64,000 bases of DNA from Phycisphaerales bacterium (GTDB lineage Bacteria; Planctomycetota; Phycisphaerae; Phycisphaerales; UBA1924): positions 77,459 through 141,458 of the forward strand of contig JADZER010000010.1 of NCBI GenBank assembly GCA_020850415.1, given 5' to 3'. The translations under genes were made by a program, and so were the position numbers. Under the pieces are notes generated by a model. It saw only the letters and a list, made by a program, of their open reading frames with translations, did not search any database and was not told the DNA's origin. Of this stretch, positions 724 through 64,000 are shown piece after piece; the first letter of the stretch is position 1; every line of letters starts with the position of its first letter.

Positions 724-735
724 GAGGAGGATCGC

Positions 736-1644: not shown

Positions 1645-2693
1645 GTATCCAGATCCGCAATGTGACGAAGACCTTCGGGTCGTTCCGGGCGCTCGACGAT
1701 GTGTCGGCGGACATCCCGACCGGGGAGCTGGTGGCGCTGCTGGGCCCGTCGGGTTCGGGGAAGACGACGCTGCTGCGGCTGATCGCCGGCCTGGAGGACC
1801 TCGACCCCGGGCGCGGCTCGATCCGGTACTACGAAGAGGACATCACCGGGACGCCCGTCAGGAAGCGGCGCGTGGGCTTCGTGTTCCAGCACTACGCGTT
1901 GTTCCGGCACATGACGGTCTTCGAGAATGTGGCGTTCGGTCTGCGGGTGCTGCCCCGGGGCGCGCGGCCCACGAAGGCGGCGATCCGCGACCGCGTCCTC
2001 GAACTGCTCCGGCTCGTGCAGCTGGACGGGCTCGCGGGCCGGTATCCCGCGCAGCTCTCCGGCGGGCAGCGTCAGCGGGTGGCGTTGGCACGGGCGCTCG
2101 CGGTGGAGCCGCGGGTGCTGCTGCTCGACGAGCCCTTCGGTGCTCTGGACGCCAAGGTGCGGACCGAGCTGCGACAGTGGATCCGGAAGCTCCACGACGA
2201 GCTGCACATCACGAGCGTGTTCGTGACCCATGATCAGGACGAGGCGATGGAGATCGCCGACCAGGTGGTGGTCATGAACGGGGGGCGTGTGGAGCAGATC
2301 GGCTCGCCGGCGGAGGTGTACCACTCGCCGCGGACGGAGTTCGTGATGAACTTCCTCGGGCAGGTGAACACCTTCACCGGGCGGGCGGTGGGGCGGGACA
2401 TCGAGTTCGCGGATCTCCGCGTCGCCGCCTCCGACGGCCGGCTGCGGGACGGCGAGGTCCGGGTGTTCGTCCGCCCGCACGAGTTCGAGCTGCGGGGCAG
2501 GGCGAACGGCCAGCCTTGCGCCGCGGCGACCGTGCTCCGGATTCACGCCGCGGGCTCGGTCGCCAGGCTTGACCTCCAGCTCGCGGACGGCAAGCTGATC
2601 ACGGCCGAGGTTCCCCAGGATCGGTTCGCGGCGCTGGCGGCGTCGACCGGCGACCTCGTGTATGTGGCGCCGCGCCGAGTGCATGTGTTCTGA
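1641..2693 (+). CDS. cysA: Sulfate ABC transporter ATP-binding protein CysA
   Basis: GTG at 1641 is in frame with track ORF 141..2693. Motifs present: Walker [13 protein letters not shown] signature [15 protein letters not shown], Walker B LLLDEPF, and a C-terminal TOBE-like regulatory tail. The first 1.5 kb of the track ORF overlaps cysT/cysW and is not coding. Confidence 0.92.
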
Positions 2694-3248
2694 GTCGTTG
2701 TCCCGCGGCCTCCGTGGCTTGGCGGCGATCATGTGTGGCTGCTGGGGTGTCCGTGGGATAGGAACCCCGGATCGGGCATGCGAACGCTCCGTACCACGGC
2801 ACGCCCGTCCGCCGCGCAGAGGCGGGTCTCGGGTGTTGCCGCGCCGCCACCGTGTGTCTCCGGCACAGCCGGGGACGGGTGGAATCTGGCGCACCGCCGC
2901 GAGGGGGGACGACGCGGCAGGATGGTGCGATGCGTTCGCGTGTGACGGGGAGGCCCCGGCGCTCGCGGGCGGGTGGCATCGGCTGGGCCCGTCTCTCCGC
3001 GGATTGGCCATTGCGCGGACCGGGCACGCTCGGCGGGTCCCTCGGAGGGCCCGGCCGGTGCTTGTGCTGTCGCAGAACAAGATGTGAACATGCGAACCCC
3101 GTACCGCAAACAGACGGCGAATTGGCTTGATTCGAGCGGGCGCTCTCTCGGAGAGGGGCGGTTCATACGGATTCGGGCGCCTTCGGCGTTGCGGGGAGGT
3201 CGGCCCCCTTGTACGCTCTTTCGGGACGGTAGAACGAGCCGCCGCACA

Positions 3249-4337
3249 ATGGGGGGTATGCACATGCTGATGCCGTCGACGAGCCGCCGCGATCAAACCC
3301 TGGCGTCCGGTTCAGGCCGGGGTTGGTGGTGTCGGGGCGCCGTGGGTGTCGGTCGGTTGGTTGTGCTCGGCTGCGTGGGCGCGAGCCCCTTGGCGGCCTG
3401 CGGCCAGACGGCGTTGGCGTACGACCTCGTTGACCTGGGGATCGCGAACACGGAGTCGACCTTCGCGGGTTCGGGTCCGGTCATCAACGAATCCGGTGTA
3501 GTGGTCTACGGCGACCCGGTTGGTCTTGCGGTCTGGCGCCAAGGGGTCATCGAGTATGTCCCGGACAGCTCCGATGGCTCGTTCGCGATGGACATCTCCG
3601 ATCGCGGCGACATCGTCGGGCAGTCGCGGGAGGGCGCCCCGCTGGCGTGGATCGACGGCGAGGCGGTGGACCTGGACAGCATCGTGCCGCAGAGGGTCAC
3701 GCTGGTCACCGCGGTGAACGAGAAGGGCGAGTTTCTGGTCCAAACGATCGAGGCCAAGTCGTACTTCGTTCAGGGCGGGCTCGCGATCCAGATCGGGGGC
3801 GACGAAGACCGCGTGCTTGCGGAGGGCCTCAACGACTCGGGCTTCGTGGTCGGGCGTTTCTACACCGGCTCCGGGGATTTCATGCCGTTCCTGTGGTCCG
3901 GCGACCACGCGATCCCGCTGTTTCGGTCGGAGGGCGGGGCGTCGGCGATCAGCCAGGCCGGCGTCGTGTGCGGGAGTCGGACGGTCCAGTTCCCCGAGAC
4001 GCAGGCGTTTCTGTTCGCCGGCGGCGAGATCGAGTTTGCGGAGCCGATCCCCGGCGCCGACATGAACGCCCCGCTGGCGGTGGGTGACGACGGCGTGGCG
4101 GTCGGCGTGGTGCGGCTCGACGGCGGCGGCTTCAGGGCCGCGATCTGGCGCAACGGGCAGGGAGCACACCTCCAGGGGCTGATCCGCAACGATCCCGGCT
4201 GGGTGCTCGAGCAGGCCAGCGACCTGAACGCCCGCGGCCAGATCGTGGGGATCGCGGTAGAGCCGGACACCGGCACGCCGCACGCGGTGCTGCTCAATCC
4301 CTGGAAGCGTCCGCGGTTGTCTCAGCAGCATCCGTGA
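3249..4337 (+). CDS. Putative lipoprotein with HAF-type extracellular repeats
   Basis: The internal ATG at 3249 gives a signal peptide with the lipobox-like motif PLAAC. A recurring motif (ISDRGDIVGQS, LNDSGFVVGR, ISQAGVVCGS, LNARGQIVGIA) resembles the HAF-family extracellular repeat. The start choice is uncertain (alternatives 3258/3264/3270). Confidence 0.6.
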   Translation: MGGMHMLMPSTSRRDQTLASGSGRGWWCRGAVGVGRLVVLGCVGASPLAACGQTALAYDLVDLGIANTESTFAGSGPVINESGVVVYGDPVGLAVWRQGVIEYVPDSSDGSFAMDISDRGDIVGQSREGAPLAWIDGEAVDLDSIVPQRVTLVTAVNEKGEFLVQTIEAKSYFVQGGLAIQIGGDEDRVLAEGLNDSGFVVGRFYTGSGDFMPFLWSGDHAIPLFRSEGGASAISQAGVVCGSRTVQFPETQAFLFAGGEIEFAEPIPGADMNAPLAVGDDGVAVGVVRLDGGGFRAAIWRNGQGAHLQGLIRNDPGWVLEQASDLNARGQIVGIAVEPDTGTPHAVLLNPWKRPRLSQQHP

Positions 4338-4498
4338 GGGTCGGGTTGTGGGGGACGGAGGTGCGCGGCGCGAGTAAGTTCTGGCCCGATGTGTGCCGCC
4401 TGGCGCGAGGGTGCATTGACGGCGCTGGAAGGGATCTGGTATCCGCGGGCGTTCGATCAGGGGTGCTGATCGCCCGGGTGGTGGCGGGGAGGAGAAGG

Positions 4499-7400
4499 AT
4501 GGAGATGAGCAATCGGACGCACGCACAGATGATCGCCGCCGCGCTCTGTCTTACCCAGGCGGGCGCGGCGGTACAGGCCCAGGAGTGCGAGACCTGGCTC
4601 GAGAGCTTCCCGACGACGGAGCTGCTCGGCGCCCCCTGGTGCGCGGTGACCTGGGATGACGGCAGCGGGCCGGCCCTGTACGCGGGCGGGGAGTTCTCCG
4701 TCAGCGGCGGGGGTGCGGTGGCGCTGCACGGCATCGGCCGGTACCGGGCGGGCATCTGGGAGTCGATCGACGGCGGCATGGCCGTCGACGGGTCCGAGCC
4801 GGAGGTGCGGGCGCTGGTGGTGTTCGATGACGGTGGCGGCGAGGCTCTCTACGCGGGAGGAGGGTTCGAGACGGCGGGCGGGGTGGAGGTGAACTCCATC
4901 GCGCGTTGGGATGGTGAGAACTGGTCTGGCCTCGCCGGTGGGCTGACGCAGTCCGACGGCGCCCCGGGCTTCTGCTGGTCCGCCACCGTGTTTGAGGGGC
5001 AGCTGTTTGTCTGGGGCGCGTTCGACTTCGCGGGCGGTGTTGCGGCCGACGGATTCGCGTGCTGGGACGGGGCGAACTGGGTTGCGCTCAACAACAACCT
5101 GCAGAACGGGTCGAGCACCGCGGTGATCGTCTACGACCTCGAGGTCTACGACGACGGGCACGGCCCGGCGATCTACGCCGGCGGGCGGATCAACGCGTCC
5201 TATGGCCACATGACGACCGGTGTCGCGAAGTGGGAGGTTGATAGCTGGGAGCCGCTCGGTGTGCCCCTGCCCCTGCTCAACTTCGAGGATGTGCGCGATC
5301 TCCATGTCGCCGATCTCGGCGCCGGAGCGCGGCTGTATGTCGGCGGGGAGTTCCGGACTTCGATCAACGGGTATGACACCCAGGCCGTTGCCGCGTGGGA
5401 CGGGCAGGCATGGCACAACCTCGAATTGGGCCTGGAGAACGAAGGGAGCGGCGGCGCGGTGGTCTACGGGCTGGGGTCCTATGACTTCGGTGACGGTACG
5501 CGGCTCTTCGCGGCGGGGGACTTCGAGGCGCGGTGGCTCGGGGCGGAGAACTTCATCAGCTGGTTTGATGGCTGGAGCTGGCACCCGATGGAGTTGGGCA
5601 CGAGCCGCTACGCCACGGAAGTGGTCGCCTTCGATCGGGGCGAGGGTCCGCGGGTGTGGGTGCTCGGCACATTCGACCGCGCGGGCCATGTCGGGACGCC
5701 CAGCATCGCGGCGTGGGACGGCTCGCGGTTCGAGCGTGCGAGCGTGGGACTGCTCGACGGCACCACGGTCCGCGACCTTGAGGTCTTCGATGACGGCGAC
5801 GGTCCGGCCGTGTTCGCCGGGGGCTGGCTCTCCGGCACGGGGTACGGCACCGAGTTCCTTGCCCGGCTCGACGGTGAGGTGTGGACGCCTTATCCCGAGG
5901 TTGCGTCCCCGGTTGAAGCGCTCGGGGCGTTCGATCTCGGAGCGGGGACCGACCTCTATGTCGCCACCGAGGGCAGCGGGACGGATATCACCGTCGCGCG
6001 CCTCGGGGACGGCGTTTGGGAGCGGGTCGGCTCCACGCTCTTCAACGGCGGTGGGCAGGCACTCGGGGTCTTCGACGCGGGCGCTGGGGCGCAGCTGTAC
6101 TGCGGCGGCGATCTTGCGGGGCTCTGGGGGGCGTACTCCCGCTGGGCGACGACCTGGACCGGGAGCGAATGGACGCCGATGGACGGGCTCGACGGCATCG
6201 TGCATGACTGGGCCGTGTTCGATGACGGATCGGGCGAGGCGATCTACGCGGCCGGGACCTTCCGGGAGGTCCACGGCGAAGCGTGCCGCGGCATCGCCCG
6301 GTGGAACGGCGCCGCGTGGGAGTCGGTGGCGGGCGGTCTGAACGGGGACGCGTTCGCGCTCGAGGTGTTCGACGACGGCGGCGGTCCAGGGCTGTATGTG
6401 GGGGGCCAGTTCACGGTGCAGGGTGGCGGCGGGCCCTCGGCGGGAGTCGCCCGCTGGACCGGCCTGGGGTTTGAAGCGCTCGGGGATGGCCTCAGCGGGA
6501 ACCCGGTGGTGTATGACCTCCGCGCCTTCGACGACGGCTCGGGCATGGCGCTCTATGTCGGCGGCAACTTCGCCGCGGCCGGCGGGATCGCTGCGAGTGA
6601 CTGCGCGCGCTGGACCGGCTCGGGCTGGGAGGCCGTCGGCCTGGGGGTCGGGGGCGGATCCGGCTTTGTGCGCGCGCTCGAGGTCTTCGACGACGGCTCC
6701 GGGCCACGGCTGGCGGCGGGAGGGACCTTCATTCAGTACGACGGCATCCCGGCCGGTCGCGTCGCGGCATGGGACGGCGCCGCCTGGGCGCCGCTCGGGA
6801 CCGGGATGAACGACGGTGTTTGGACGCTGGCGGTCTTCGACGATGGGTCCGGCGAGCGGCTCTTCGCCGGCGGTCAGTTCGATCTCGCGGACGGGCAGCC
6901 GGCCGATCTCGTCGCCGGTTGGGACGGCGCGGCCTGGCACGGAGCCGGGTCCATCGACGATCGCGGGCGGGTGTACTCGCTTGAGGTGTTCGACCCCGGC
7001 ACCGGCGCGGTCCTCTACGCCGGCGGCACATTCACAGAGGCGGCCGGCCGGCCGGTGGGGTTCCTCGCCTCCTGGGACGGCGGCGGCTGGTCGGGTGCGC
7101 CGGACGCAGACGACTTCATCCACTCGCTCAAGGCCATGGTCTACGGGGACGCCCCTGTCCTGGGCGTCGGCGGCGAGTTCCGTCTTGTCGGGAGCGACGG
7201 CTCCACCGGCCTGGTGAGGCTGGACGGGGACCGGTGGGCCGGCGTTCCGAACTCCCCCCTCGACGGGACCGTGACGGACCTGCTCGAGCACGATGACGGG
7301 GGCGGCTCGGCCCTGTACCTGGGCGGCGGGTTCACGCAGCCGGGTCGGTATGTCGCCCGATACAAGGGGTCGGCGTGGGAGCCCCTTGGCGAGGGCTTCG

Positions 7401-8005
7401 ACGATTGGGTGCGCGCGCTCGAGGTCTTCGACGATGGCGCGGGCGCCGCGCTGTACGCCGCGGGCGACTTCACCGAGAGCGGCGGCACGCCGGCCGGGCG
7501 GGTGGCCCGGTGGGACGGCGATTCCTGGCAGCCGGTCGGGGGCGGGATCGACAACGGGGTCGTCACGGACCTCGAGGCTCACGATGGCCCGAACGGACCG
7601 TGGCTGGTCGCGTTGGGCAGCTTCACCTCGGTCGAGGGCGGCACGCCGAGCGATCGCATCGCCGCGTGGGACGGCGCCCGGTGGATCCCCTTCAGCCCGG
7701 GTCTCGACGACTACGCCGCCTGCGCGTTGTCAACCGACTATGGGGGCTCACCCCGCCTGTATGTGGGTGGGAGCTTCGGGTTGTCGGGTGGGGTGTCCGC
7801 CGGCGCGCTCGCCGTCTGGGGGGCGTGCCCCCCGCCCCCGTGCGTCGCCGACTTCAACGACGATGGCGCGGTCAACACCCTCGATGTTCTGGCGTTTCTC
7901 AACGCGTGGGTCTCGGGCGACGGCTCGGCGGACATCAACGGGGACGGCGATGTCAACACGCTGGATGTTCTCGCGTTCCTGAACCTCTGGAACGCCGGGT
8001 GCTGA
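4499..8005 (+). CDS. Giant secreted repeat (beta-propeller-like) protein with C-terminal GC-type dockerin-like module
   Basis: ATG at 4499 is preceded by GGAGAAGG. The signal peptide is MEMSNRTHAQMIAAALCLTQAGAAVQA. There are about 21 diverged copies of a roughly 55-aa unit (..VFDDGxGxxLYAGGxF....AxWDGxxW..). The protein ends CVADFNDDGAVNTLDVLAFLNAWVSGDGSADINGDGDVNTLDVLAFLNLWNAGC. Confidence 0.82.
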   Translation: MEMSNRTHAQMIAAALCLTQAGAAVQAQECETWLESFPTTELLGAPWCAVTWDDGSGPALYAGGEFSVSGGGAVALHGIGRYRAGIWESIDGGMAVDGSEPEVRALVVFDDGGGEALYAGGGFETAGGVEVNSIARWDGENWSGLAGGLTQSDGAPGFCWSATVFEGQLFVWGAFDFAGGVAADGFACWDGANWVALNNNLQNGSSTAVIVYDLEVYDDGHGPAIYAGGRINASYGHMTTGVAKWEVDSWEPLGVPLPLLNFEDVRDLHVADLGAGARLYVGGEFRTSINGYDTQAVAAWDGQAWHNLELGLENEGSGGAVVYGLGSYDFGDGTRLFAAGDFEARWLGAENFISWFDGWSWHPMELGTSRYATEVVAFDRGEGPRVWVLGTFDRAGHVGTPSIAAWDGSRFERASVGLLDGTTVRDLEVFDDGDGPAVFAGGWLSGTGYGTEFLARLDGEVWTPYPEVASPVEALGAFDLGAGTDLYVATEGSGTDITVARLGDGVWERVGSTLFNGGGQALGVFDAGAGAQLYCGGDLAGLWGAYSRWATTWTGSEWTPMDGLDGIVHDWAVFDDGSGEAIYAAGTFREVHGEACRGIARWNGAAWESVAGGLNGDAFALEVFDDGGGPGLYVGGQFTVQGGGGPSAGVARWTGLGFEALGDGLSGNPVVYDLRAFDDGSGMALYVGGNFAAAGGIAASDCARWTGSGWEAVGLGVGGGSGFVRALEVFDDGSGPRLAAGGTFIQYDGIPAGRVAAWDGAAWAPLGTGMNDGVWTLAVFDDGSGERLFAGGQFDLADGQPADLVAGWDGAAWHGAGSIDDRGRVYSLEVFDPGTGAVLYAGGTFTEAAGRPVGFLASWDGGGWSGAPDADDFIHSLKAMVYGDAPVLGVGGEFRLVGSDGSTGLVRLDGDRWAGVPNSPLDGTVTDLLEHDDGGGSALYLGGGFTQPGRYVARYKGSAWEPLGEGFDDWVRALEVFDDGAGAALYAAGDFTESGGTPAGRVARWDGDSWQPVGGGIDNGVVTDLEAHDGPNGPWLVALGSFTSVEGGTPSDRIAAWDGARWIPFSPGLDDYAACALSTDYGGSPRLYVGGSFGLSGGVSAGALAVWGACPPPPCVADFNDDGAVNTLDVLAFLNAWVSGDGSADINGDGDVNTLDVLAFLNLWNAGC

Positions 8006-54602: not shown

Positions 54603-56041
54603 TACTCGCACTCACACTGGCCGGTGTCCCCCTGTGCGGCGCGGCGATCGCGTACGCCATCCCGTCGAACACGGCGCGACCACTGGTGCTGCCCGTGTGC
54701 GCGCTCGCGCACCTGGCCGCGGCAGTGGCGGCGTTCGCGGGGGTTGACGCGGGCGCCGGCTGGCTCGCCCTCGACCCGCCGGGCCGGCTCGTGCTGCTCC
54801 TGGTGAGCGTCCTCTTCGCCGCCTGCTCGTTCTACGCAGTGGGGTACCTCCGGCTCCGTGGCGAGCGCGACAACAAGGTGTTCTGCGCCTGCCTGCTGGC
54901 GTTCCTGGGCATGACGAGCCTGATCGCCTGCGCCCAGCATCTCGGGCTCTTCTGGGTCGCGGTCGAGGCGACCACGCTCTCCAGCGCACCGCTGCTGTAC
55001 TTCAACCGCACGGGGCATTCGCTCGAAGCGACATGGAAGTACCTGCTCATCGGCTCGGTGGGGATCGCGCTCGCGCTGCTCGGGTCGCTCTTCCTCGGCT
55101 ACTCGGCTCTGGCCGGGGGCCAGGACTCCTCGCTCCTCTTCGATGACCTGGTCAGGAACGCCCCGAGCTTCTCCAAACCGTGGCTCCACGGCGCGTTCAT
55201 CCTCCTCTTCGTCGGCTACGGCACGAAGATGGGCCTCGCGCCCATGCACACATGGAAGCCCGACGCCTACGGCGAGACCCCCGGCGTTGTCGGCGCCCTG
55301 CTCGCCGGAGGATTGACCAGCTGCGCCTTCCTGGGCATCGTCCGGACATTCCGTGTGGTGGTCGCGGCCGGCGAGGCCGAGTTCGCCAGCCAGATCCTGG
55401 TGGTCATGGGCGTCGTGTCGATGGCGGTCGCCGGGGTGTTCATGGTGCAGCAACGAGACTTCAAACGCATGCTGGCCTACTCCAGCGTCGAGCACATGGG
55501 GCTGCTGATCCTGGGCCTGGGCCTGGGGCCCGTGGGCGCGTACGGCTCGCTCCTGCACATGGTGAACAACGGCCTGGTCAAGGGCGTTATGTTCCTCACC
55601 GCGGGCAACATCCATCGCGCCTACGAGAGCAAGTCGACCGACGAAGTCTCGGGCGCGCTCCGGAGGCTGCCATGGTCCGGCGGGCTCTTTCTCGCCGGAT
55701 TCATCGCCGTGACGGGATCCCCGCCCTTCGCCCCGTTCGTCAGCGAATTCACCATCCTGAACGCAGCCATCGGCGAGGGACGGTACATCATCGGCGGCCT
55801 CATGCTCGTACTCCTCCTGGTGATCTTCATGGGGATGGGGGCGACCGTCCTGGCGGTCGTGCAGGGACAACCATCGGCGCGAGCGAAGCGGACACCCTTC
55901 CATGACCGGGCCATCACGATCCTGCCCCCGCTCGTGCTGATGACCGGCGTGGTCATCCTTGGCCTCTTCGTGCCCGCGCCGCTGCGCCGCACGATCGAAG
56001 AGGCCGTGCGATTCCTCGGATTCCCGGAGCCCCAGCCGTGA
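54599..56041 (+). CDS. Hyf/Ehr complex antiporter-like subunit (HyfF/NuoN-M-like)
   Basis: A 480-aa polytopic protein (GLAPMHTWKPDAYGETP, MLAYSSVEHMG). ATGA overlap upstream and GTGA overlap downstream. Confidence 0.9.
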   Translation: MILALTLAGVPLCGAAIAYAIPSNTARPLVLPVCALAHLAAAVAAFAGVDAGAGWLALDPPGRLVLLLVSVLFAACSFYAVGYLRLRGERDNKVFCACLLAFLGMTSLIACAQHLGLFWVAVEATTLSSAPLLYFNRTGHSLEATWKYLLIGSVGIALALLGSLFLGYSALAGGQDSSLLFDDLVRNAPSFSKPWLHGAFILLFVGYGTKMGLAPMHTWKPDAYGETPGVVGALLAGGLTSCAFLGIVRTFRVVVAAGEAEFASQILVVMGVVSMAVAGVFMVQQRDFKRMLAYSSVEHMGLLILGLGLGPVGAYGSLLHMVNNGLVKGVMFLTAGNIHRAYESKSTDEVSGALRRLPWSGGLFLAGFIAVTGSPPFAPFVSEFTILNAAIGEGRYIIGGLMLVLLLVIFMGMGATVLAVVQGQPSARAKRTPFHDRAITILPPLVLMTGVVILGLFVPAPLRRTIEEAVRFLGFPEPQP

Positions 56042-57567
56042 TCAATGTGTCCCGCTTCCTCACGATGGGCAACGCCGACCCGGTGGAGCACAGCGATATC
56101 CCCGTGCTGCCGTTCGACCAGTTCAGATCCGATGTCGTCGGGGCAATCGCCGATGGGCTCCGCCTCGGGGCCCTGACCGCCCGCGCCGAGAGCGACCACT
56201 CCGTGCGCATCTACGCGGTCCTGCTCGACGACCTGACGGGCTTGATCCACGCCGCCAGCGCGACAACCCCGCACGGCTCGTTCCCGTCCCTCACGCCGGA
56301 CTGCCCCCAGGCGCACCTGTTCGAGCGAGAGATCACCGAGCAGCTCGGGGTCGAGCCCCGCGGCCACCCATGGCTGAAGCCGGTCCGCTTTCACGCGGCC
56401 TACTCCGGACGCCCCCAGCCGTGGGCCGGCCCCGACGGGGCGCCTCCCCTCATCGGTGTCACCGACTACTTCAGGGTGGAGGGCGACGAGGTGCACGAGG
56501 TCGCCGTGGGCCCGGTCCACGCCGGGATCATCGAGCCGGGGCACTTCCGGTTCCAGTGCCACGGCGAGGAAGTGTTCCACCTGGAGATCTCGCTCGGCTA
56601 CCAGCACCGCGGGATCGAGCGTCGCCTCCTGGGCGGGCCGGACCGGCGCACCATCCACTACTTCGAAACGCTGGCCGGCGATACCACGGTCGGTCACACC
56701 ATGGCGTACTGCCACGCCGTCGAGGCCCTGATCGGCCTCCATGCCCCGGCCCGAGCGCAGGCCCTGCGCGGCATCGCCCTCGAGCTGGAGCGCCTGGCCA
56801 ACCATGTCGGCGACCTCGGCGCCCTGGCGGGGGATGTGGGCTTCCTGCCCACCGCCGCGTACTGCGGCCGCCTCCGCGGGGACTTCCTGAACATGACCGC
56901 GGCGATGTGCGGGAGCCGCTTCGGCCGGGACCTCGTCCGCCCGGGCGGCGTGGTCTTCGATCTCGAGCCCGAGCAGGTCGGCGCCCTCACCAGCCGCCTC
57001 GCCGACGCCGAACGAGACACCGCCTCGGCGGTCAACCTGCTGTGGAACACCCCGTCCGTCATGGCGCGGCTCGAAGACACCGGCCGGCTCGAGCGCGGCA
57101 CCGCCGAGAGCATCGGGCTCGTCGGGCCCGCCGCACGGGCGTGCGGGATCAGCCGCGATGTACGCCACGACTTCCCATCCGGGATCTACCAGTTCAGCCA
57201 CCTGCCGGTCTCCACATGGGGCACCGGCGATGTGTTTGCCCGTGCGTATGTGCGCTGGCTGGAGATTCAGCAGTCGATCCGGTTCATCCGCGAGCAGCTC
57301 CAGGTGCTGCCCGGGGGGCCCTGCATCGCGGAGGTGGGCCCCCTGCCGCCGGGCCGGTTCGTGGTCTCGCTGATCGAGGGCTGGCGCGGCGAGATCTGTC
57401 ACATCGCGACGACCGGCCCCGACGGCGCCTTCGCCCACTACAAGGTGATCGACCCCTCGTTCCACAACTGGTTCGGGCTGGCGCTCGCCCTCCGCGGGCA
57501 ACAGATCTCGGACTTTCCCCTCTGCAACAAGAGCTTCAACCTGTCGTACTCGGGGCATGACCTCTAG
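56038..57567 (+). CDS. NuoC-NuoD/HycE-like 'large subunit' lacking NiFe-binding cysteines (Ehr-type)
   Basis: GPVHAGIIEPGHFRF and LGYQHRGIE place it in the group-4 hydrogenase/NuoD family. Where HycE-type proteins have R.CG.C...H, this protein has LAGDTTVGH. The C-terminus is DFPLCNKSFNLSYSGHDL instead of DPC..C. Confidence 0.9.
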   Translation: MINVSRFLTMGNADPVEHSDIPVLPFDQFRSDVVGAIADGLRLGALTARAESDHSVRIYAVLLDDLTGLIHAASATTPHGSFPSLTPDCPQAHLFEREITEQLGVEPRGHPWLKPVRFHAAYSGRPQPWAGPDGAPPLIGVTDYFRVEGDEVHEVAVGPVHAGIIEPGHFRFQCHGEEVFHLEISLGYQHRGIERRLLGGPDRRTIHYFETLAGDTTVGHTMAYCHAVEALIGLHAPARAQALRGIALELERLANHVGDLGALAGDVGFLPTAAYCGRLRGDFLNMTAAMCGSRFGRDLVRPGGVVFDLEPEQVGALTSRLADAERDTASAVNLLWNTPSVMARLEDTGRLERGTAESIGLVGPAARACGISRDVRHDFPSGIYQFSHLPVSTWGTGDVFARAYVRWLEIQQSIRFIREQLQVLPGGPCIAEVGPLPPGRFVVSLIEGWRGEICHIATTGPDGAFAHYKVIDPSFHNWFGLALALRGQQISDFPLCNKSFNLSYSGHDL

Positions 57568-57819
57568 CCCCGCCCGGTGACCGCCCCGAGGAGGCCCCAT
57601 GCAGACCGACAAGACCAGCCTCGCACACCTGCCGGGGCACTACCCCCACGCCGCAGGAAGCGCCGAGGTGAGCAGAGACCCGCGCAGCCGATGGCCTCGA
57701 TGCGTTCGCGCTCTCACGCTCGCCGGCTGTGACACCCTCGGGGGCCCCGGACGACGACGCGGCGTGCCGCTCCCCCCATCGAGGCGAGCGCCGCCGCAAT
57801 CCGGATCGGAGACCCAACA

Positions 57820-58605
57820 GTGATCCATGTGCTTCTGGCCCGCTACCGTCAACGACACCGGACGATGCGCTACCCGGCCGGCCCGCCGCCCGAACTGCCC
57901 GCCCACTTCCGCGGCCGGCCGACCATCGACGCGGCCAGGTGCCCCCCGGCGTGCCGCGAGTGTGCCGAGGCCTGCCCAACGCAGGCGATCACGATCAACG
58001 GGACGCCCCGGATCGACCTGGGCCGATGCCTCTTCTGCACGGACTGCCTGCGGGCATGCCCGTCCGACGCGATCGCGTTCTCGCGCGACTATCGGCTCTC
58101 GACGGACACGCGTGAAGCGCTCGTCATGGAGGACAATGTGCTCGAACTGGCCCGAGGACTCCAGGGAAAGACGCGACGCCTCTTCGGCAGATCGCTCAAG
58201 CTCCGTCAGGTGTCGGCCGGCGGGTGCAACGGCTGCGAGATGGACACCAATGTCCTGAGCACCATCGGCTGGGACCTGGCCCGGTTCGGCATCCAGTTCG
58301 TCGCCTCGCCGCGCCACGCCGACGGCCTCCTCGTCACCGGCTGCGTGACGGAGAACATGCAGCTCGCGCTGCAAAAGACCTACGACGCGTTAACACCGCC
58401 GAAGATCGTCATCGCCGTCGGGGCCTGCGCGATCTCCGGGGGACCATTCATCGATCACCCCGAAGGCCACAACGGCGTCACCGGGCGGCTCCCCGTCGAC
58501 CTGTTCATCCCCGGGTGCCCGCCGCACCCGCTGACCATCCTCGACGGCCTGCTGCGGTTCCTGGGCCGGATCGACCCGGAGCCGACCCCCGGGCAACGCA
58601 CATGA
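57820..58605 (+). CDS. Fusion of 2x[4Fe-4S] ferredoxin (HycF/NuoI-like) and NuoB/HycG-like small subunit
   Basis: The N-terminal half carries CPPACRECAEACP and CLFCTDCLRACP. The C-terminal half carries GGCNGCE, GACAISGG and GCPPHP, which together supply the four Cys of the N2-type cluster. The start is GTG at 57820. Confidence 0.88.
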   Translation: MIHVLLARYRQRHRTMRYPAGPPPELPAHFRGRPTIDAARCPPACRECAEACPTQAITINGTPRIDLGRCLFCTDCLRACPSDAIAFSRDYRLSTDTREALVMEDNVLELARGLQGKTRRLFGRSLKLRQVSAGGCNGCEMDTNVLSTIGWDLARFGIQFVASPRHADGLLVTGCVTENMQLALQKTYDALTPPKIVIAVGACAISGGPFIDHPEGHNGVTGRLPVDLFIPGCPPHPLTILDGLLRFLGRIDPEPTPGQRT

Positions 58606-58798
58606 GCCAACCTCCGACCTGCGACGCCAGCCGCTCCACGCCCGCTCCCCTGGCGTGGATGCGCCCGCGTTGGGCAGCGTCGGACCCCTGATCGGGGCTC
58701 TCCCCCTCCCCGCGCCACGGCCGGCGCTCCATACCCTGTGCACCCCGACCACGAGAGCCCCCGGCACAGAGAACGGGGCAGGTCGCAAGGATCAGACG

Positions 58799-59968
58799 AT
58801 GTTCGTTGCCCAAGCCCATTCCTTCACGCAGCAGGCCCGGCTCGCGATCTCGCTTGCCTGGGTCGCCGGCTACACCAACATCCTGACGGTTATCACCTGC
58901 GGCACGGTCACATCGCATCTATCCGGGACCGCCTCGAATCTTGGTCGGCAAGTCGCCGAGGGTTCGTGGTCGCTCGCGTGGTTCTCGTTCCTCCTGCTCG
59001 TGGCCTTTGTCCTCGGTGCGATGGCGTCCGGAGCGCTCACCGAACTGGGCCGCCGCCGCGGGTGGGAGTCGATCTATGTGCTCCCGATCGCCGTGGAAGC
59101 GGTCCTCCTGGCGGCATTCGCCGTGGGGGTGGAGGTGCACGATCACGGAACCCGCCAGAGCGGCGTTCCGCTCTACTGGCTCACCGGCATCGCGTCGTGC
59201 GCCATGGGATTGCAGAACGGGACCATCACACGCATCTCGTCCGGAGTCGTCCGCACCACGCACATCACAGGGGTGCTGACGGACCTGGGCCTTGAGACAA
59301 CCCAGTTCCTCCTGTGGGCACGCGATCGCGGCCGCGATTCCCCGCCCGTGCCGCCGCGCTCGTTGCTGCGCAGCGCGAGCGTTCACCCCACCGCGCGGCG
59401 GCTGGCGCTCCTGGCATCAATCGTCGGGTCGTTCGCCGTCGGCGGTGGCCTGGGCACACTCGCGCACGGGTTCGCCGAGCGGTGGGCGATGTTCCCCCCC
59501 GTCGTCTTCTTGATATGGCTCATCTACAGGGACCTGGTCATTCCCATCGCGGAAGTCGAGCCGTCGGAACTCGTGGGTGGAGAGAACGGTCTGCAACTGC
59601 CGACGACCATGGCGGTCTTTCATGTGCGCAACGAGAAGGACCATCGCGGCAAGGCGCACCGCATGCCCGACCTGCAGGCGTGGGGAGAACGGCTACCCGC
59701 AACCGTGCGGGTGGTCGTGCTCGATCTGGGGGAAATGGCCACATTCGACAGCAACGCGGTCATGGAACTGCGCGCGGTGCTCAGGAGCTTCGCGACGCAG
59801 AACAGGAAGCTGCTGATCACGGGACTGGGCTTCGAGCAGTTCCAGGAACTCCGCCGAGTCGGCTCGACCGAGTTCCTCGACCTGACCAACTTCTGTCCGG
59901 ACCTCGAGCTCGCGATCGCCCGGGCAATGATCATGGTCGAGAGCATCCCCGCGCCCAACCGCGCGTGA
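58799..59968 (+). CDS. DUF1275/YoaK-family membrane protein fused to a C-terminal STAS domain
   Basis: The membrane half has the YoaK-like motifs VTSHLSGTASNLG and GLQNGTITRISSGVVRTTHITGVLTDLG. The C-terminal ~110 aa look STAS-like (VVVLDLGEMATFDSNAVMELRAVL...LLITGL). ATG at 58799 is chosen inside track ORF 58655..59968. Confidence 0.72.
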   Translation: MFVAQAHSFTQQARLAISLAWVAGYTNILTVITCGTVTSHLSGTASNLGRQVAEGSWSLAWFSFLLLVAFVLGAMASGALTELGRRRGWESIYVLPIAVEAVLLAAFAVGVEVHDHGTRQSGVPLYWLTGIASCAMGLQNGTITRISSGVVRTTHITGVLTDLGLETTQFLLWARDRGRDSPPVPPRSLLRSASVHPTARRLALLASIVGSFAVGGGLGTLAHGFAERWAMFPPVVFLIWLIYRDLVIPIAEVEPSELVGGENGLQLPTTMAVFHVRNEKDHRGKAHRMPDLQAWGERLPATVRVVVLDLGEMATFDSNAVMELRAVLRSFATQNRKLLITGLGFEQFQELRRVGSTEFLDLTNFCPDLELAIARAMIMVESIPAPNRA

Positions 59969-60017: not shown

Positions 60018-60521
60018 ATGACTCGGGCCCCCCGGCCGCGTCATCGGCCTCGAACGCGTCCCAACAGCGAGCGCGCCGAGTACACCCGCGACGAGGCCCT
60101 CATCGGCCTGGGGCACTGGGACCTCGACCGTCGCCCCGACTTCCGCGAGGGCGTGCTCCACATCCCTGACCGCAAGAGCGACGCGTTCTTCGTGACCCTG
60201 CACAAGACCGAGGACGCGTACTCCCCAACGACCATGTACGAGGACTACGCGATCAGCGACCAGCTCTTCCACTGGCAGTCCCAGAGCACCACCTCGGCCG
60301 ATTCGCCTACCGGCCAACGCTACACCCGCCACCGCGAGCAGGGCTACACGCCCATGCTCTTCGTCCGCGAACGCAAGGCCCTTCCCAGCGGTCTCGCCTC
60401 CCCCTACGCCTTTCTCGGCCCGGCGGATCATGTATCTCACAGCGGCAGCCGCCCGATCAGCATCGTGTGGCGATTGCGGACCCCAATGCCGACGCGCCTC
60501 GCGCGAGTCGCAGTTGGCTAG
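60018..60521 (+). pseudogene. Orphan C-terminal DUF3427-like fragment (normally the tail of a large helicase/nuclease protein)
   Basis: Residues ..REGVLHIPDRKSDAFFVTLHKTEDAYSPTTMYEDYAISDQLFHWQSQSTT..GQRY..LFVRERK..PYAFLGPA..H.G.RPISIVWRL..PMP match my recollection of the DUF3427 domain. No helicase domain lies upstream. The N-terminal 30 aa are Arg/Pro junk. Confidence 0.5.
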
Positions 60522-60598: not shown

Positions 60599-60850
60599 GA
60601 TCATGCGGCGAACGCTCGGCGATCATGCCAGGCGCACTGGATGAACGAGGGCATCGCGCCGTACCTCGTCGCGCGGTGGCTCGGGCACAGCCTGACCGTG
60701 AGCGCCAGGCACTACACGCTGGCCATGCCCGACGAGGTGCTGTCGCGGGTGACGGGCCGAACGGTGACCCCACCCGCGGCGACAAAAGTGACGCAAAAAG
60801 TGACGCAGCACGCGTCCGCACCGGAGCGCACGGCGCACCGAATCGCCTGA
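60599..60850 (+). pseudogene. Tyrosine recombinase (phage-type integrase) C-terminal fragment
   Basis: Only the last ~60-80 aa are recognisable: ..ARRSCQAHWMNEGIAPYLVARWLGHSLTVSARHYT. (R, H and catalytic Y region). The remainder of a ~350-aa integrase is absent. Confidence 0.55.
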
Positions 60851-60892
60851 TCGAGCCTCTCCGACATCCCGCGCAACCCCCCCAAAAGCAAA

Positions 60893-60926
60893 GGCTTGCG
60901 CCCCGGTGCAACCCGGTGCGCAAGCC
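60893..60926 (-). terminator. Intrinsic terminator for a minus-strand transcript
   Basis: GGCTTGCGC (60893-60901) pairs with GCGCAAGCC (60918-60926). An inner CCGG/CCGG extension gives 13 bp with one mismatch. On the minus strand the stem is followed by TTTGCTTTTGG. It lies 8 nt downstream of the tRNA-like 3' end. Confidence 0.6.
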
Positions 60927-60934
60927 TCGAAGAA

Positions 60935-60961
60935 TGGAGCCGGGGGGATCGAACCCCCGGG
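60935..60961 (-). ncRNA. tRNA-like T-arm plus acceptor 3' strand (fragment, or the 3' end of an unidentified structured RNA)
   Basis: The minus strand reads CCC GGGGG TTCGATC CCCCC GGCTCCA, which is a canonical T-stem / T-loop / T-stem followed by an acceptor-like strand. I could not find a matching 5' acceptor strand or cloverleaf within the preceding 90 nt. Confidence 0.5.
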
Positions 60962-61111
60962 CGATTCCGCGTGTTGCCTGGATATCAAGGCCAAAACGCG
61001 TATGTCGCCCGAAGCGCGACGCAAAATGTGACGCACAGGTTTCCGCCTGTCGCACAACCTCTGGCATACCGACTTCAGGACCACCCCCATTTGGAGCGGG
61101 TAGGGAGACGA

Positions 61112-61138
61112 CGCGCCGCACGCGCCGCACGCTCCGCA
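61112..61138. repeat. Tandem 9-mer x3 (CGCGCCGCA CGCGCCGCA CGCTCCGCA)
   Basis: Read directly from the sequence in a non-coding stretch. Confidence 0.8.
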
Positions 61139-61298
61139 ATCAACCCGAGGCCCGCGCCTGCCGCCCCGTCCGGTCCTCCCGCCGCCGCGGCGTTGGCCTC
61201 GCTGCCGCCCCACGACGCCGCGTGCGGCGTTCCGGTCGAGCGGGCCGATACCGGGGCCAAAGCGCCCGCCCACGCGGCACGGGGCGACGACGCCCGCG

Positions 61299-61516
61299 GC
61301 CGCCAGTTGGCCACAACACCCTTCGGTGGTGGCCTTCTGGCGGGTACGGCGGACGGGGAGTGGGGGGGTTCCGGTAGCCGCCAGTTGGACACAATCTCTT
61401 TCGATTGTGGCCTTGTGGCGGTCACGGTGGTGGCGGCATGAGGGGGGTTTCCCCTGGTCGCCGGGTGGGCGCGATCTGTCCCGTCCAGGGGGCGGTCACG
61501 GTGGGGGCGGCGTGAG
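61299..61516. repeat. Two tandem ~78-nt units, each with a 44-nt imperfect hairpin, plus a third partial unit
   Basis: Hairpin A is 61300-61343 and hairpin B is 61378-61421. They share the outer stems CCGCCAG..CTGGCGG and GG(C/A)CAC..GTGGCC, but the apical stems differ while still pairing (CACC/GGTG versus AATC/GATT). The 14-nt GGCGGTCACGGTGG recurs at 61417 and 61491. Confidence 0.8.
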
Positions 61517-61653: not shown

Positions 61654-64000
61654 ATGAAGCGAGAGCAGGCCATCTTCGGTCGATGGACGAGCGTCGTTTC
61701 CTGCGGGGTAGTAGCGGCTGGCGTGTGGGGTCTGGCGAGTGGGGCGGTTCATTCCTCGCTGGGCTTCGTCATCGACTACCTCGCGTCGGTCCGCGCTGAT
61801 GTGTTGTCAACCGCGGTGCTCGTGCTGGTCGTGGCCGCTTGCTGGCCGTTTGGGCGGCGGCGCTGGCTGGCATTCCTCGGACTTCGACACCTCGGAACCT
61901 ACCCACCTCTGTGGATCGCTGTCGCAGTTGCCTTGCTGATCATTGGAGTCTACGAGGGGATCGCCGGGCGATGGGAACCGGCGATTGCGGGGCCAGGCCT
62001 GATCTGGTCGCTGATCACGACGGCTCCCGCTTGGGTTTGGCTCGCAGCCGGTGTCGTCCTGGGGACGCGCCTCCTTCACAAGAGTTGGCCAGCAGCAAAC
62101 GCCCGAGCGCCAGACGGTGATGGTGGTGGTCTCTCGGCGCTGATCACTTGGTTACGTGATGATCACGAGATTTCCCAGCCTCACGAAGACCGGTTCGGTC
62201 ACGATGCTGTGGCCACTCGCATCGCCGAGCGTCTCAAAGCCCAGGGCGAAAGTCCGACCATGGCTGTCGTTGGACCTCTCGGTTCTGGCAAGTCCACGAT
62301 TCGCCAGCTTGTTGAGCATCACTTGGGTACGCAACGCTCGACCGTGATGGTCCATCTCAGTCTTTGGCCGTTTGATACTCCCGACGCCGCTGTCGCTGGG
62401 ATCATCCGGTCCGTCATCCGAGCGTTGGGGCAGCGAGTGAACGTTCTGGCCATTGCCGGGCTGTCCGAACGCTATGTGGAGGTCATTGAGCGTACCGGCG
62501 GACGCTGGGGTGTCCTAGCGAGGCTGATGCGTGGGGACTCCAGGCCCGACGTGATCCTCCGGTCTCTGGCGACCATTGCGACTGCGGCAGGTCTTAAACT
62601 CGTTCTCTGGATCGAGGACATGGAGCGATTCACCGGGGCTGACCGACTCGGCCCGGAAGATGCGGCCATCAGAGAGGCAGAACGACTCGGGCCGATTCTG
62701 TCGCTTCTCGTGCTGCTCGATCGGTGCGACTCGATCTCGGTTATCGTCGGCGACACATCGCTGCGCTCGCGGTTGGATGTCGGAAAGATAGCCCGATTCG
62801 TCGAGAGTCCTCCCCGTCCGGGTGCGAAGGAGATCTGGCGGCAGATCGAATCCCTCCGATCAGCGTGCCTTTCCGAAGACGTACTTGATCCGGCCAGTGA
62901 AGAGTGTCGCGCAGTACTCACTCCGCCCGAGAGCGACCTTCAATACGGTATTTGGTTGTGGAGTGTCCGGGACAGCGAACCGCGCATTCAAGAAGCGCTT
63001 CCATTGCTGCTAACCACACCACGATCGTTCAAGTGGGCACTTCGTATCACATGGGAGACCTGGGAGCGACTAGCCGGTGAAGTTGATATCGACAGCGTAC
63101 TGGTCGCGTCCGCTCTCAGGGTGTCTCGGCCGGAGCTGTTTGCGTTTATTGATGAACATGTGGATCTCATGCGAAGCGGCTTTCGTGATCCAGTCGCCAG
63201 TGTCGACGGTCAACGATCTGCGCATCCGGTGTTTGAGCAACTCCGTGCCTTGCTGGACAAGGAGAACACTGAGCGAATGCGAAATGCAGTCGCTACCGCG
63301 ATCGGCTTTGTGTTCCCTGCAGTATTCAGCCACTACGAGCGCGATCGTGATTACATGGAGCGCCCCCAAGGTCTAGGTGTAGCGCGCCATGCAGACTACT
63401 GGCAGCGATACCTGACGCTCCCGGTTATCGCGGAGGGAATCAGTGATCAATCGGCATTGAAGGCGATCGCTGCTTCGAAGACCGGCCAGAGTAGTGACCT
63501 GGTGGCAAGGCTCATGGATGCCGAACGCTCCGAACAAGTCGAGACGTTCGTCGGGCAGTTTGACGCAGAACACCTCTGCCGACTCCTGACGGAGCTGGTA
63601 GCCGTTCTCCAGGATCAATCTGCACGGGCGTGGGAAGACGGGCGACATGCACCCGGCATTGTGCCAGTATGGCGCATGATGCACCGACGCCAACCTCCCG
63701 TGGCTTTGCTGGGTGACACGCTTGTCCGAGTCATGAGTGCATTGGCAATGCGGCATTTGCCGCTGACGCAAGACATCTGGTACTACTTCGCGGAAGAACA
63801 GCATGGAAGTGTCTCCAGTCTACTTGATGACGTTCAGCGCGAACGGGTCCGAGTCGCCATCCGCGGGGGCATGGTGGGCACCTTCAAACAGAATGCTGGC
63901 GATCGCCTATTGCAGGCGATGCACCATGGCTCGCCATGGGTTGTCTGGTATCTCTGCATGGCGGTTGCGACCAATGAAGCCGGGGGGCCGCCATTTGATG
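61654..64000 (+). CDS. Membrane-anchored KAP-like P-loop NTPase (3' end outside window; absent from supplied ORF track)
   Basis: My own translation of the frame containing 61654. A stop (TAA) lies at 61627-61629, the ATG is at 61654, and there is no stop to position 64000. The N-terminal ~150 aa hold about 4 TM helices. Next comes DDHEISQPHEDRFGHDAVATRIAERL...VVGPLGSGKST (Walker A, 62272-62298) and Walker B-like LKLVLWIEDMERF. Local G+C is about 60% against about 68% elsewhere. Confidence 0.8.
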   Translation, partial: MKREQAIFGRWTSVVSCGVVAAGVWGLASGAVHSSLGFVIDYLASVRADVLSTAVLVLVVAACWPFGRRRWLAFLGLRHLGTYPPLWIAVAVALLIIGVYEGIAGRWEPAIAGPGLIWSLITTAPAWVWLAAGVVLGTRLLHKSWPAANARAPDGDGGGLSALITWLRDDHEISQPHEDRFGHDAVATRIAERLKAQGESPTMAVVGPLGSGKSTIRQLVEHHLGTQRSTVMVHLSLWPFDTPDAAVAGIIRSVIRALGQRVNVLAIAGLSERYVEVIERTGGRWGVLARLMRGDSRPDVILRSLATIATAAGLKLVLWIEDMERFTGADRLGPEDAAIREAERLGPILSLLVLLDRCDSISVIVGDTSLRSRLDVGKIARFVESPPRPGAKEIWRQIESLRSACLSEDVLDPASEECRAVLTPPESDLQYGIWLWSVRDSEPRIQEALPLLLTTPRSFKWALRITWETWERLAGEVDIDSVLVASALRVSRPELFAFIDEHVDLMRSGFRDPVASVDGQRSAHPVFEQLRALLDKENTERMRNAVATAIGFVFPAVFSHYERDRDYMERPQGLGVARHADYWQRYLTLPVIAEGISDQSALKAIAASKTGQSSDLVARLMDAERSEQVETFVGQFDAEHLCRLLTELVAVLQDQSARAWEDGRHAPGIVPVWRMMHRRQPPVALLGDTLVRVMSALAMRHLPLTQDIWYYFAEEQHGSVSSLLDDVQRERVRVAIRGGMVGTFKQNAGDRLLQAMHHGSPWVVWYLCMAVATNEAGGPPFD

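Follow-up and report, generated by a model that had tools for sequence, protein, structure and literature searches.

A Phycisphaerales contig stretch ends within a KAP-family ATPase gene that is intact and horizontally acquired and whose product is membrane anchored

The 64,000-nucleotide (nt) stretch analyzed here, referred to as the window, comes from contig JADZER010000010.1 of a Phycisphaerales bacterium (GenBank assembly GCA_020850415.1, positions 77,459 to 141,458), and its end falls inside a gene that is intact, was acquired horizontally, and encodes a KAP-family ATPase anchored in the membrane. The gene starts at base 61654 and encodes a protein that we call P0001 (GenBank MCC7387507.1, IT431_01935). 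A role for KAP nucleoside triphosphatases (NTPases) in conflicts with foreign DNA was predicted some twenty years ago, but it was 2025-2026 before several of them were shown to be potent single-gene phage defenses, and their mechanisms are largely open. P0001 is an untested member of this already known kind, not a new kind of system or category. We estimate a probability of about 0.6 that its gene is a stand-alone, single-gene, horizontally mobile defense NTPase of the kind represented by PifA, Tmn and EF_KAP.

RESULTS

The window ends inside an intact gene under purifying selection

The reading frame that contains base 61654 has no stop over 782 codons, up to base 64000 at the window end, and the remaining five frames carry between 9 and 28 stops across the same 2.3 kb. 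At the observed base composition, the chance of a 782-codon open frame is about 1e-11. An in-frame TAA lies 24 nt 5' of the ATG at 61654, and this ATG is the earliest possible start. The open reading frame (ORF) is absent from the program-made ORF list because it runs past the window end, just as a preliminary description of the window, made from its letters alone, had supposed when it proposed a long ORF from 61654 that was unlisted for want of a stop. The same description had allowed that a stop might have been misread in this frame; there is none in the 782 codons.

Across its entire length, the window translation shows 100% identity to P0001, a 902-amino-acid (aa) protein from a 143,853-bp contig of a Phycisphaerales metagenome-assembled genome. 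The 782 codons in the window are thus the first 87% of the protein, and, given this identity over the full window translation, the gene is intact and continues for 120 codons past the window. When P0001 was compared with its closest relative, which lies at a locus that we designate L073 (78% aa identity, colinear), the differences fell 122/80/287 at codon positions 1/2/3, a split indicating that the gene is under purifying selection.

P0001 carries a KAP-type NTPase module

Within P0001, the P-loop NTPase spans residues 165 to 390 and the whole KAP module spans residues 165 to 635 (Table 1). The Pfam profile KAP_NTPase (PF07693), which also matches many homologs, scored 24.0 bits against P0001 (cut-off, 20; E = 2.8e-5), covering profile positions 3 to 95 of 293 only. 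The link to the KAP family that we regard as decisive comes from comparison of sequence profiles. With a 41-sequence profile as the query, hhalign aligned residues 165 to 635 with Trichormus variabilis WP_011316385 over 427 columns (probability, 98.2%; E = 2.9e-14), and WP_011316385 itself has a full-length Pfam KAP_NTPase match (E = 4e-85). The F-plasmid protein PifA was aligned over 297 columns (probability, 93.8%; E = 1.7e-7), with residues 170 to 501 of P0001 facing residues 14 to 362 of the 741 in PifA. A profile score above cut-off, homology to bona fide members over the whole module, and both Walker motifs, of the GxxxxGK[ST] and hhhhDDxDR types, are therefore in place, and the KAP-type P-loop head read from the sequence in the preliminary description is borne out, with its two motifs lying where they had been put.

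The motifs themselves hold residues that are invariant in all 41 homologs (Table 1), and each has a counterpart in PifA. Walker A aligns with GAWGSGKT of PifA; the Walker B strand aligns with FIVVMDDLDRL in the hhalign comparison, so that WIEDMERF lies on MDDLDRL; and TPRSFKWALR aligns with STPREIHQAIN, so that TTPRSFK lies on STPREIH. The arginine of TPRSFKWALR is likely of the sensor-2 type. Along the protein, conservation is highest in the NTPase.

The title of Aravind et al. 2004, as cited in PMC12632615, describes KAP NTPases with transmembrane (TM) helices inserted within the NTPase domain. Neither hydropathy nor the AlphaFold2 (AF2) model gave a TM-grade segment between Walker A and Walker B of P0001, and the insert at residues 243 to 311 is predicted to form amphipathic helices. 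PifA and the Trichormus KAP protein likewise have no TM helices inserted in the NTPase, so this feature is not universal. P0001 instead has four predicted TM helices outside the P-loop domain, an arrangement that has been described for KAP proteins (PMC13001434).

Other searches placed the protein less precisely. The PADLOC profiles for PifA (E = 5.6e-15) and QatA (E = 9e-6) matched over the NTPase head only. When the whole AF2 model was compared with the PDB by Foldseek, the matches were AAA+ proteins of the ORC/Cdc6 type, clamp loaders, and proteasomal ATPases, with TM-scores of at most 0.46, and RdrA at rank 29 over 855 columns; these matches to a predicted model fit an NTPase of the ASCE (additional strand, conserved glutamate) or AAA+-like type and are not diagnostic. 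Against a viral library, Foldseek returned giant-virus AAA+ proteins and one protein annotated KAP, and a tblastn search of phage genomes with the protein gave no matches. PDB sequence searches with the protein and with the profile returned only Walker A matches to ABC transporters, which are uninformative on family, and were set aside.

The NTPase is flanked by a predicted membrane anchor and a family-specific C-terminal region

Four hydrophobic segments, at residues 14 to 32, 48 to 66, 86 to 104, and 117 to 135, precede the KAP module, with Kyte-Doolittle peaks of 1.55 to 2.25, and they are kept in homologs. In the AF2 model of the whole protein (predicted local distance difference test [pLDDT] score, 82.9; predicted TM-score, 0.71), all four are helical. 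Across the 41 homologs, the mean number of lysines plus arginines is 4.2 in the N-tail, 3.2 in loop 2, and 5.2 after the fourth helix, with 1.4 and 0.8 in loops 1 and 3, respectively. Given this positive-inside bias, both termini are predicted to face inward, which would place the NTPase in the cytoplasm. The helices were predicted from hydropathy and AF2 and not with a dedicated TM predictor; these data agree with the four N-terminal TM helices of the preliminary description.

At the other end of the protein, an AF2 model of residues 505 to 902 (pLDDT, 82.3) is all-helical except for one beta-hairpin. A Foldseek search of the PDB with these C-terminal 398 aa gave nothing below an E value of 0.1 (best, 0.14), with a loose resemblance to helical repeats, and a recognizable enzymatic effector in this region was therefore dropped as a candidate. 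The last ~270 aa are restricted to the P0001 family. The C-terminal region is, together with the TM domain and the linker at residues 146 to 165, among the least conserved parts of the protein.

The gene is compositionally foreign and lies beside an attachment-like sequence

The KAP ORF has a G+C content of 0.603, and its G+C content at third codon positions (GC3) is 0.639. The window mean is 0.694, all other 2-kb bins lie between 0.67 and 0.73, and the genes neighboring the KAP ORF have GC3 values of 0.84 to 0.92. These figures support the drop to about 60% from about 68% elsewhere that had been counted by hand, and GC3 deviates as well, as expected of a compositionally foreign patch. The deviation is confined to the KAP gene, since the 1.6 kb of debris upstream of it has host-like G+C. 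Among the loci of relatives sampled for composition, the KAP gene is lower in G+C than its flanks at L003, L004, L007, and L073 and about equal to them at L008 and L010. Given that the 78% identical relative at L073 is the same kind of low-G+C gene between high-G+C flanks, the low G+C of P0001 is not simply a sign of very recent arrival.

The debris contains two broken genes. The first, which begins 50 nt past the stop of the preceding gene, keeps only the C-terminal half of DUF3427; because its GC3 is host-like, it probably dates back a long time and derives from a helicase-type gene with DUF3427. The second is a stub of a tyrosine recombinase with a weak match to the last 36 positions of Pfam Phage_integrase (profile positions 131 to 166 of 172; E = 0.14) and a tblastn match to the C terminus of the intact integrase at L021 (E = 0.016). 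Between this stub and the KAP gene lies a tRNA-like T-arm and 3' acceptor strand, a putative attachment (att) core. The preliminary description had placed a tRNA-like remnant and an integrase fragment here; the tRNA-like sequence is real and unique in the window, and the integrase fragment has the two weak matches just given. The direct repeat of the tRNA-like sequence that the same description had proposed to look for was not found in the window at up to 3 mismatches. ARAGORN at its defaults found no tRNA gene in the window, and an Rfam search of 58 to 64 kb gave nothing relevant. A pseudo-tRNA-Ser at 60934-61024, reported by ARAGORN at the 80% threshold only, was rejected; its 5' half overlaps one of the 20-nt repeats described below and cannot pair with the 3' strand of the acceptor, and in L073 its "anticodon" region is less conserved than the T-arm/acceptor fragment.

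Direct repeats of the motif GTGACGCAAAAWGTGACGCA bracket the core at -128 and +53 nt, an arrangement that looks like an attP with arm-type sites. DNA similarity to L073 starts at the first bases of that locus, which correspond to the core (window position 60933), and continues through the gene. Conservation in L073 is nearly complete for the core and the right-hand repeat and exceeds that of the coding sequence, so that together they may be an attachment site that is functional and moves with the gene. Among the loci compared, only the window and L073 share this arrangement; no T-loop-like att fragment was found between integrase and KAP gene at L016, L021, L024, or L068.

A 3' tRNA fragment on the minus strand, without its 5' half, marks the distal end of an element that lies to its right. 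The layout is consistent with tandem accretion, in which an older element on the left would have left the DUF3427 and integrase stubs and a newer one on the right would carry the KAP NTPase as its first cargo; in this model, the intact tRNA or transfer-messenger RNA (tmRNA) gene and the newer integrase would lie beyond the window. Within the window, the intact integrase and the intact tRNA or tmRNA at the boundary that would mark a tRNA-targeting island were not found, the boundary holding only the ~50-aa stub and the 29-nt fragment, whereas the compositional deviation of such an island is present for the KAP gene only. Taken together, these data place the gene beside decayed mobile-element sequences (the DUF3427 half, the integrase stub, and the tRNA-like core with its 20-nt repeats), as first proposed.

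Three further features of this region were noted. A 15-nt inverted repeat (AGGCTTGCGCCCCGG / CCGGTGCGCAAGCCT) at 60891-60927 lies directly left of the core and was partly caught by a minus-strand terminator scan. Tandem units of ~78 nt with compound hairpins, unique in the window, lie ~140 to 350 nt 5' of the KAP start (fold z-score, -2.75); L073 also holds two such units, which could belong to the att region, act as a regulatory RNA, or bind a protein. An ORF at 60896-61441 that is open also in L073 was considered as a gene and rejected; since its identity to L073 is 54% at the aa level versus 77% at the nt level, we treated it as noncoding, and it has indels and no Pfam match. A sigma-70 promoter scan of 60.8 to 61.8 kb gave nothing, which is uninformative for a planctomycete.

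Relatives of the gene are numerous, often adjoin integrases and defense genes, and keep no partner

An exhaustive profile search at an E value of 1e-30 or less found at least 1027 cluster representatives at 50% identity. Among the 150 matches listed, most are ~900 aa long and nearly full-length, and no library used offered an informative family name. The locus thus adds a large, cleanly delimited subfamily from phyla with almost no known defense biology. A scan of a species-representative genome collection found only two loci, both distant and short.

We examined 9 contexts from assemblies and 55 from Joint Genome Institute (JGI) metagenomes and clustered all ORFs within 6 kb of the KAP gene at ~50 loci. 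No conserved partner gene emerged across these ~50 loci, and the sole neighbor family present at more than two independent loci was the tyrosine integrase (L016, L021, L024, and L068). Given the lack of a conserved neighbor, the gene behaves as a self-contained single-gene module. The suggestion that it might be the first gene of a multigene system continuing beyond the window is consequently not supported by these comparisons.

Many copies lie beside defense genes, as the preliminary description had expected of KAP NTPases in general. The neighbors include genes for a serine recombinase, TerB, a BrxC/D-like protein, and a DEAD protein at L007; a DUF4011 helicase, type III restriction-modification (R-M), Mrr, PIN, and IS1595 at L010; PglZ, a BrxD-like protein, and a DEAD protein at L012; TIR, SIR2, and an Eco57I-like restriction enzyme at L013; a tyrosine integrase, PemK, and PIN at L016; and an SNF2 helicase and an MmeI-like type IIG R-M protein at L030. 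Among 145 neighbor ORFs from 30 further loci, Phage_integrase was the commonest Pfam family, and PADLOC found type IIG, III, and IV R-M, prokaryotic Argonaute (pAgo), AbiE, reverse transcriptase, and PDC-S11 genes in the same set. Genes of BREX, R-M, TIR/SIR2, pAgo, and AbiE type thus recur beside the family.

Additional observations concern individual loci. A DUF2924 gene adjoins the KAP gene at L007 (7400-9721), where it is paired with a large serine recombinase, and at L013 (12856-13663), where the contig stops just beyond DUF2924. These two contigs are unrelated, and the KAP gene therefore sits at the edge of serine-recombinase elements in addition to tyrosine-integrase ones. The L007 element also carries a ParB_N-methyltransferase. 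At L028, a gene for a 2454-aa RHS/teneurin-like YD-shell polymorphic toxin (77-7438), a conflict-system neighbor, lies ~2.5 kb upstream of the KAP member. Downstream of the KAP gene at L073 (3529-3959) are a small glycine-rich ORF on the opposite strand and a gene start reading ..ITPYDKNPR.., which recalls ParB-like N-terminal domains but has no Pfam match at 53 aa.

P0001 resembles several known defense NTPases without belonging to their models

PifA is the single-gene T7 exclusion protein of the F plasmid that, upon T7 infection (gp1.2 or gp10), brings about membrane depolarization and nucleotide leakage, as summarized in PMC13001434, which describes it without TM helices. P0001 shares with PifA the KAP core and the helical module that follows it, the aligned Walker A, DDLDR-type Walker B, and (S/T)TPR motifs, and the status of a single gene on mobile DNA; PifA acts, and P0001 is predicted to act, at the membrane. 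However, PifA starts with its NTPase, so that no N-terminal TM block aligns, identity is ~21%, and the C-terminal halves are unrelated. The near-full-length match to the PifA profile that membership would bring is absent, the best stretch being positions 6 to 105 of 720.

In Enterococcus faecalis, phage protection reaches up to 6 logs with EF_KAP and three other single-gene KAP NTPases, all of which combine TM helices with a C-terminal region whose fold is unknown (PMC13552941; preprint, PMC12632615). Protection by EF_KAP requires Walker B and the C-terminal region and, by tests at different multiplicities of infection, is not abortive (PMC13552941; PMC12632615). By their published description, these proteins share with P0001 the succession of TM helices, KAP NTPase, and ~300 aa with no recognizable domain, as well as a stand-alone position beside recombinases; their C-terminal regions lack a structural match, as in P0001. 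In P0001, accordingly, a single stand-alone gene encodes all three elements of the EF_KAP-type architecture, namely, TM helices, a KAP NTPase, and a C-terminal region whose fold is not recognized. The differences are that EF_KAP has a pair of TM helices, of which one lies within the NTPase domain in the published version, whereas P0001 has four, all N-terminal; that the EF_KAP-type hosts are Bacillota, whereas the host of P0001 belongs to the Planctomycetota; and that the EF_KAP-type genes lie beside small serine recombinases, whereas relatives of P0001 lie beside tyrosine integrases or large serine recombinases with DUF2924.

Tmn is a P-loop NTPase of the YobI family with two inserted TM helices that forms a membrane decamer, and its solenoid arms bind the phage protein RIIB (PMC13001434). 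Binding raises ATP turnover and leads to Mg2+ export and to plasmolysis without leakage (PMC13001434). Like Tmn, which is a single-gene defense, P0001 is predicted to be a membrane-embedded P-loop NTPase with long helical or solenoid cytosolic regions, and Tmn can serve as a mechanistic template in which arms sense, ATP is turned over, and ions are exported across the membrane. In Tmn, a YobI-family protein, the two TM helices lie inside the P-loop domain, whereas those of P0001 are N-terminal. The YobI-ATPase profile did not match P0001 at an E value of 1 or less; the relative P0016 matched at E = 0.003 with 17.6 bits (cut-off, 27).

The canonical plasmid KAP protein without TM helices, WP_011316385 of T. 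variabilis, is encoded beside a restriction endonuclease. Its module aligns with that of P0001 over the 427 columns given above, but it is a 706-aa protein that starts with the NTPase and has no N-terminal TM block, its identity is ~21%, and it does not share the C-terminal ~270 aa. The order of an N-terminal output module, a central NTPase switch, and a C-terminal helical, sensor-like region also recalls Avs and other signal transduction ATPases with numerous domains (STAND); NB-ARC and nSTAND gave weak matches on the P-loop, and Avs4 was among the noise-level Foldseek matches of the C-terminal region. However, all STAND Pfam matches were subthreshold, the NTPase groups with KAP, and no tetratricopeptide or other defined repeat family was detected. 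Membership in QatABCD was not supported either, since NCBIfam QatA scored 24.8 bits against a cut-off of 600 and no QueC- or TatD-type neighbors occurred in any context examined. Judged by profile and motif, P0001 is a member of the KAP superfamily and, by their models, is not PifA, Tmn, or QatA. The description of the gene as uncharacterized accordingly fits this subfamily but not the kind as a whole, for which PifA, Tmn, and single-gene KAP NTPases are known to block phages (PMC13552941, PMC13001434).

DISCUSSION

The proposal that P0001 is a single-gene defense NTPase is supported by its KAP membership, its TM anchor, the lack of a partner, its foreign composition, its integrase and defense neighbors, and the precedents. 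How such a protein would act can be outlined by analogy with those precedents. Recognition of a phage protein would fall to the helical C-terminal region or to the helical arms of the KAP module; recognition would switch the NTPase, probably within a membrane-embedded oligomer; and the N-terminal TM bundle would couple the nucleotide cycle to the inner membrane, where a change such as ion export, leakage, or a block to DNA entry would halt phage multiplication. The gene would have arrived on an integrative element, to the right of the tRNA-like att core and apart from the remains of the older element. Because the kind of output differs from one precedent to the next, we hold this sensor-switch-membrane scheme only tentatively, at clearly less than even odds, and place more weight on the defense role as such.

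Several points weigh against the defense proposal. The function and mechanism proposed for the P0001 family are drawn from precedent, and the sensor and effector roles of its two ends are assigned by analogy. The protein matches no named system; PADLOC PifA covers only ~100 of 720 profile positions, and the QatA score falls far below its cut-off. The three precedents differ in mechanism, with leakage in one, Mg2+ export without leakage in another, and nonabortive protection in the third (PMC13001434, PMC13552941). The TM helices are predicted solely by hydropathy and AF2. Roughly half the contexts sampled are neighborhoods of an ordinary housekeeping or metabolic kind (L003, L004, L008, and many JGI loci), and the enrichment of defense neighbors is qualitative, without a matched control. 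Finally, since the window ends inside the gene, a local partner gene may lie past base 64000.

One alternative is that the gene serves the mobile element itself, by excluding plasmids, integrative and conjugative elements, or phages at the membrane or by stabilizing the element, and that any phage defense is incidental, as has been argued for PifA. In its favor, KAP genes lie directly beside integrases or recombinases and an att-like sequence, and the att core, intergenic region, and gene form a single conserved block in L073; moreover, phage restriction is perhaps not the primary function of PifA (PMC13552941). Many copies, however, have no mobile-element genes within 10 kb. Although the data do not separate service to an element from host defense, we consider the former unlikely.

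It is more improbable still that P0001 is the first gene of a multigene defense or conflict system with partners beyond the window. Because the window ends within the gene, the downstream genes of this genome lie past 64000, some KAP NTPases such as QatA do act in operons (and a weak QatA match is seen here), and at L007 a set of TerB, BrxCD-like, and DEAD genes follows on the same strand. Yet only integrases and recombinases recur among the ~50 loci, in the closest relatives (L012, L073, L004, and L003) different genes lie downstream, often on the opposite strand, and genes for QatB, QatC, and QatD occur in none of the examined contexts.

We regard as very improbable a housekeeping role without any link to conflict, in which P0001 would be a membrane NTPase assembling or regulating a membrane complex in Planctomycetota and other environmental bacteria. 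In favor of such a role, several relatives lie among metabolic genes, the family is large, and KAP NTPases were first proposed to regulate membrane-associated complexes (cited in 10.1101/2022.08.21.504612). Against it stand the GC3 of 0.64 against 0.84 to 0.92 in neighbors, the G+C below that of the flanks at three of five other sampled loci and at L073, the lack of conserved synteny, the integrases and defense genes adjoining many copies, and the patchy distribution suggested by the two loci in the species-representative collection.

Returning to the defense proposal, P0001 may represent a distinct lineage of defense NTPases, widespread among environmental bacteria, with four N-terminal TM helices, a KAP module without inserted TM helices, a unique C-terminal domain, and at least 1000 clusters at 50% identity, in which the TM bundle of an oligomer would serve directly as the effector by acting as an NTP-gated ion exporter or pore triggered when the C-terminal region binds a phage protein. 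This more specific version is doubtful, but if it is true, Planctomycetota would have their first defined defense mechanism of this type, and Tmn would be joined by a second mechanistic class of membrane P-loop defense. The simple layout of a four-helix anchor, an NTPase, and a C-terminal region of unknown character makes the family a convenient entry to the coupling of a nucleotide switch to a membrane. Since PADLOC and NCBIfam give only partial, subthreshold matches, the family would also be of practical use for annotation.

Coordinates of features and flanking host genes

TABLE 1 Features of the KAP NTPase gene and of the sequence upstream of it (window coordinates)
Feature	Position	Strand	Evidence
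Membrane-anchored KAP-family NTPase gene (P0001), codons 1-782 of 902	61654..64000	+	Open frame; identity to P0001
N-terminal membrane domain (residues 14-135), four predicted TM helices	61693..62058	+	Hydropathy; AF2; lysine-plus-arginine bias
KAP module (residues 165-635), P-loop core and helical domains common to KAP proteins	62146..63558	+	Pfam; hhalign; Foldseek
Walker A, GPLGSGKST	62272..62298	+	G207, G210, G212, and K213 invariant in 41 homologs
Walker B strand and KAP signature, KLVLWIEDMERF (LVLWIEDMERF)	62596..62631	+	W319, D322, R325, and F326 invariant in 41 homologs
TPRSFKWALR motif, start of lid-like helix	63016..63045	+	P456, R457, K460, and R464 invariant in 41 homologs
Family-specific C-terminal region (residues 636-902), start	63559..64000	+	AF2 model; Foldseek
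Truncated gene, C-terminal half of DUF3427 only	60018..60521	+	Pfam E = 2e-21, profile positions 132-275 of 280; GC3 0.85, host-like
Tyrosine recombinase stub, last ~50 aa (..WLGHSLTVSARHYT..; LGH...RHY end)	60611..60760	+	Weak Pfam and tblastn matches
20-nt repeat GTGACGCAAAAAGTGACGCA, left of core, candidate arm-type recombinase site	60788..60807	+	Two copies in window, 0 expected
tRNA-like T-arm and 3' acceptor strand, 29 nt (CGCCCGGGGGTTCGATCCCCCCGGCTCCA), putative att core	60935..60963	-	Unique in window, 0 expected
20-nt repeat, second copy GCGACGCAAAATGTGACGCA, right of core	61016..61035	+	Invariant in L073
Tandem ~78-nt units with compound hairpins (61299-61376, 61377-61454) and partial third unit (61491-61516)	61299..61516	+	Repeat search; folding

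Coordinates of the features discussed above are collected in Table 1. Farther upstream, on the plus strand, the window carries host genes. A gene at 56038-57567 encodes a fused NuoC/NuoD-like protein (Complex1_30kDa and 49kDa domains), and one at 57820-58605 encodes a protein with two [4Fe-4S] clusters and a NuoB-like domain; these Nuo-like genes (56038-58605) are of the complex I or group-4 hydrogenase type and have GC3 values of 0.88 to 0.92. The 1.6 kb of debris is preceded by a final clearly host-like gene, at 58655-59968, which encodes a 437-aa protein with a DUF1275 membrane domain (E = 2.8e-31) and a weak C-terminal STAS match (E = 0.003).

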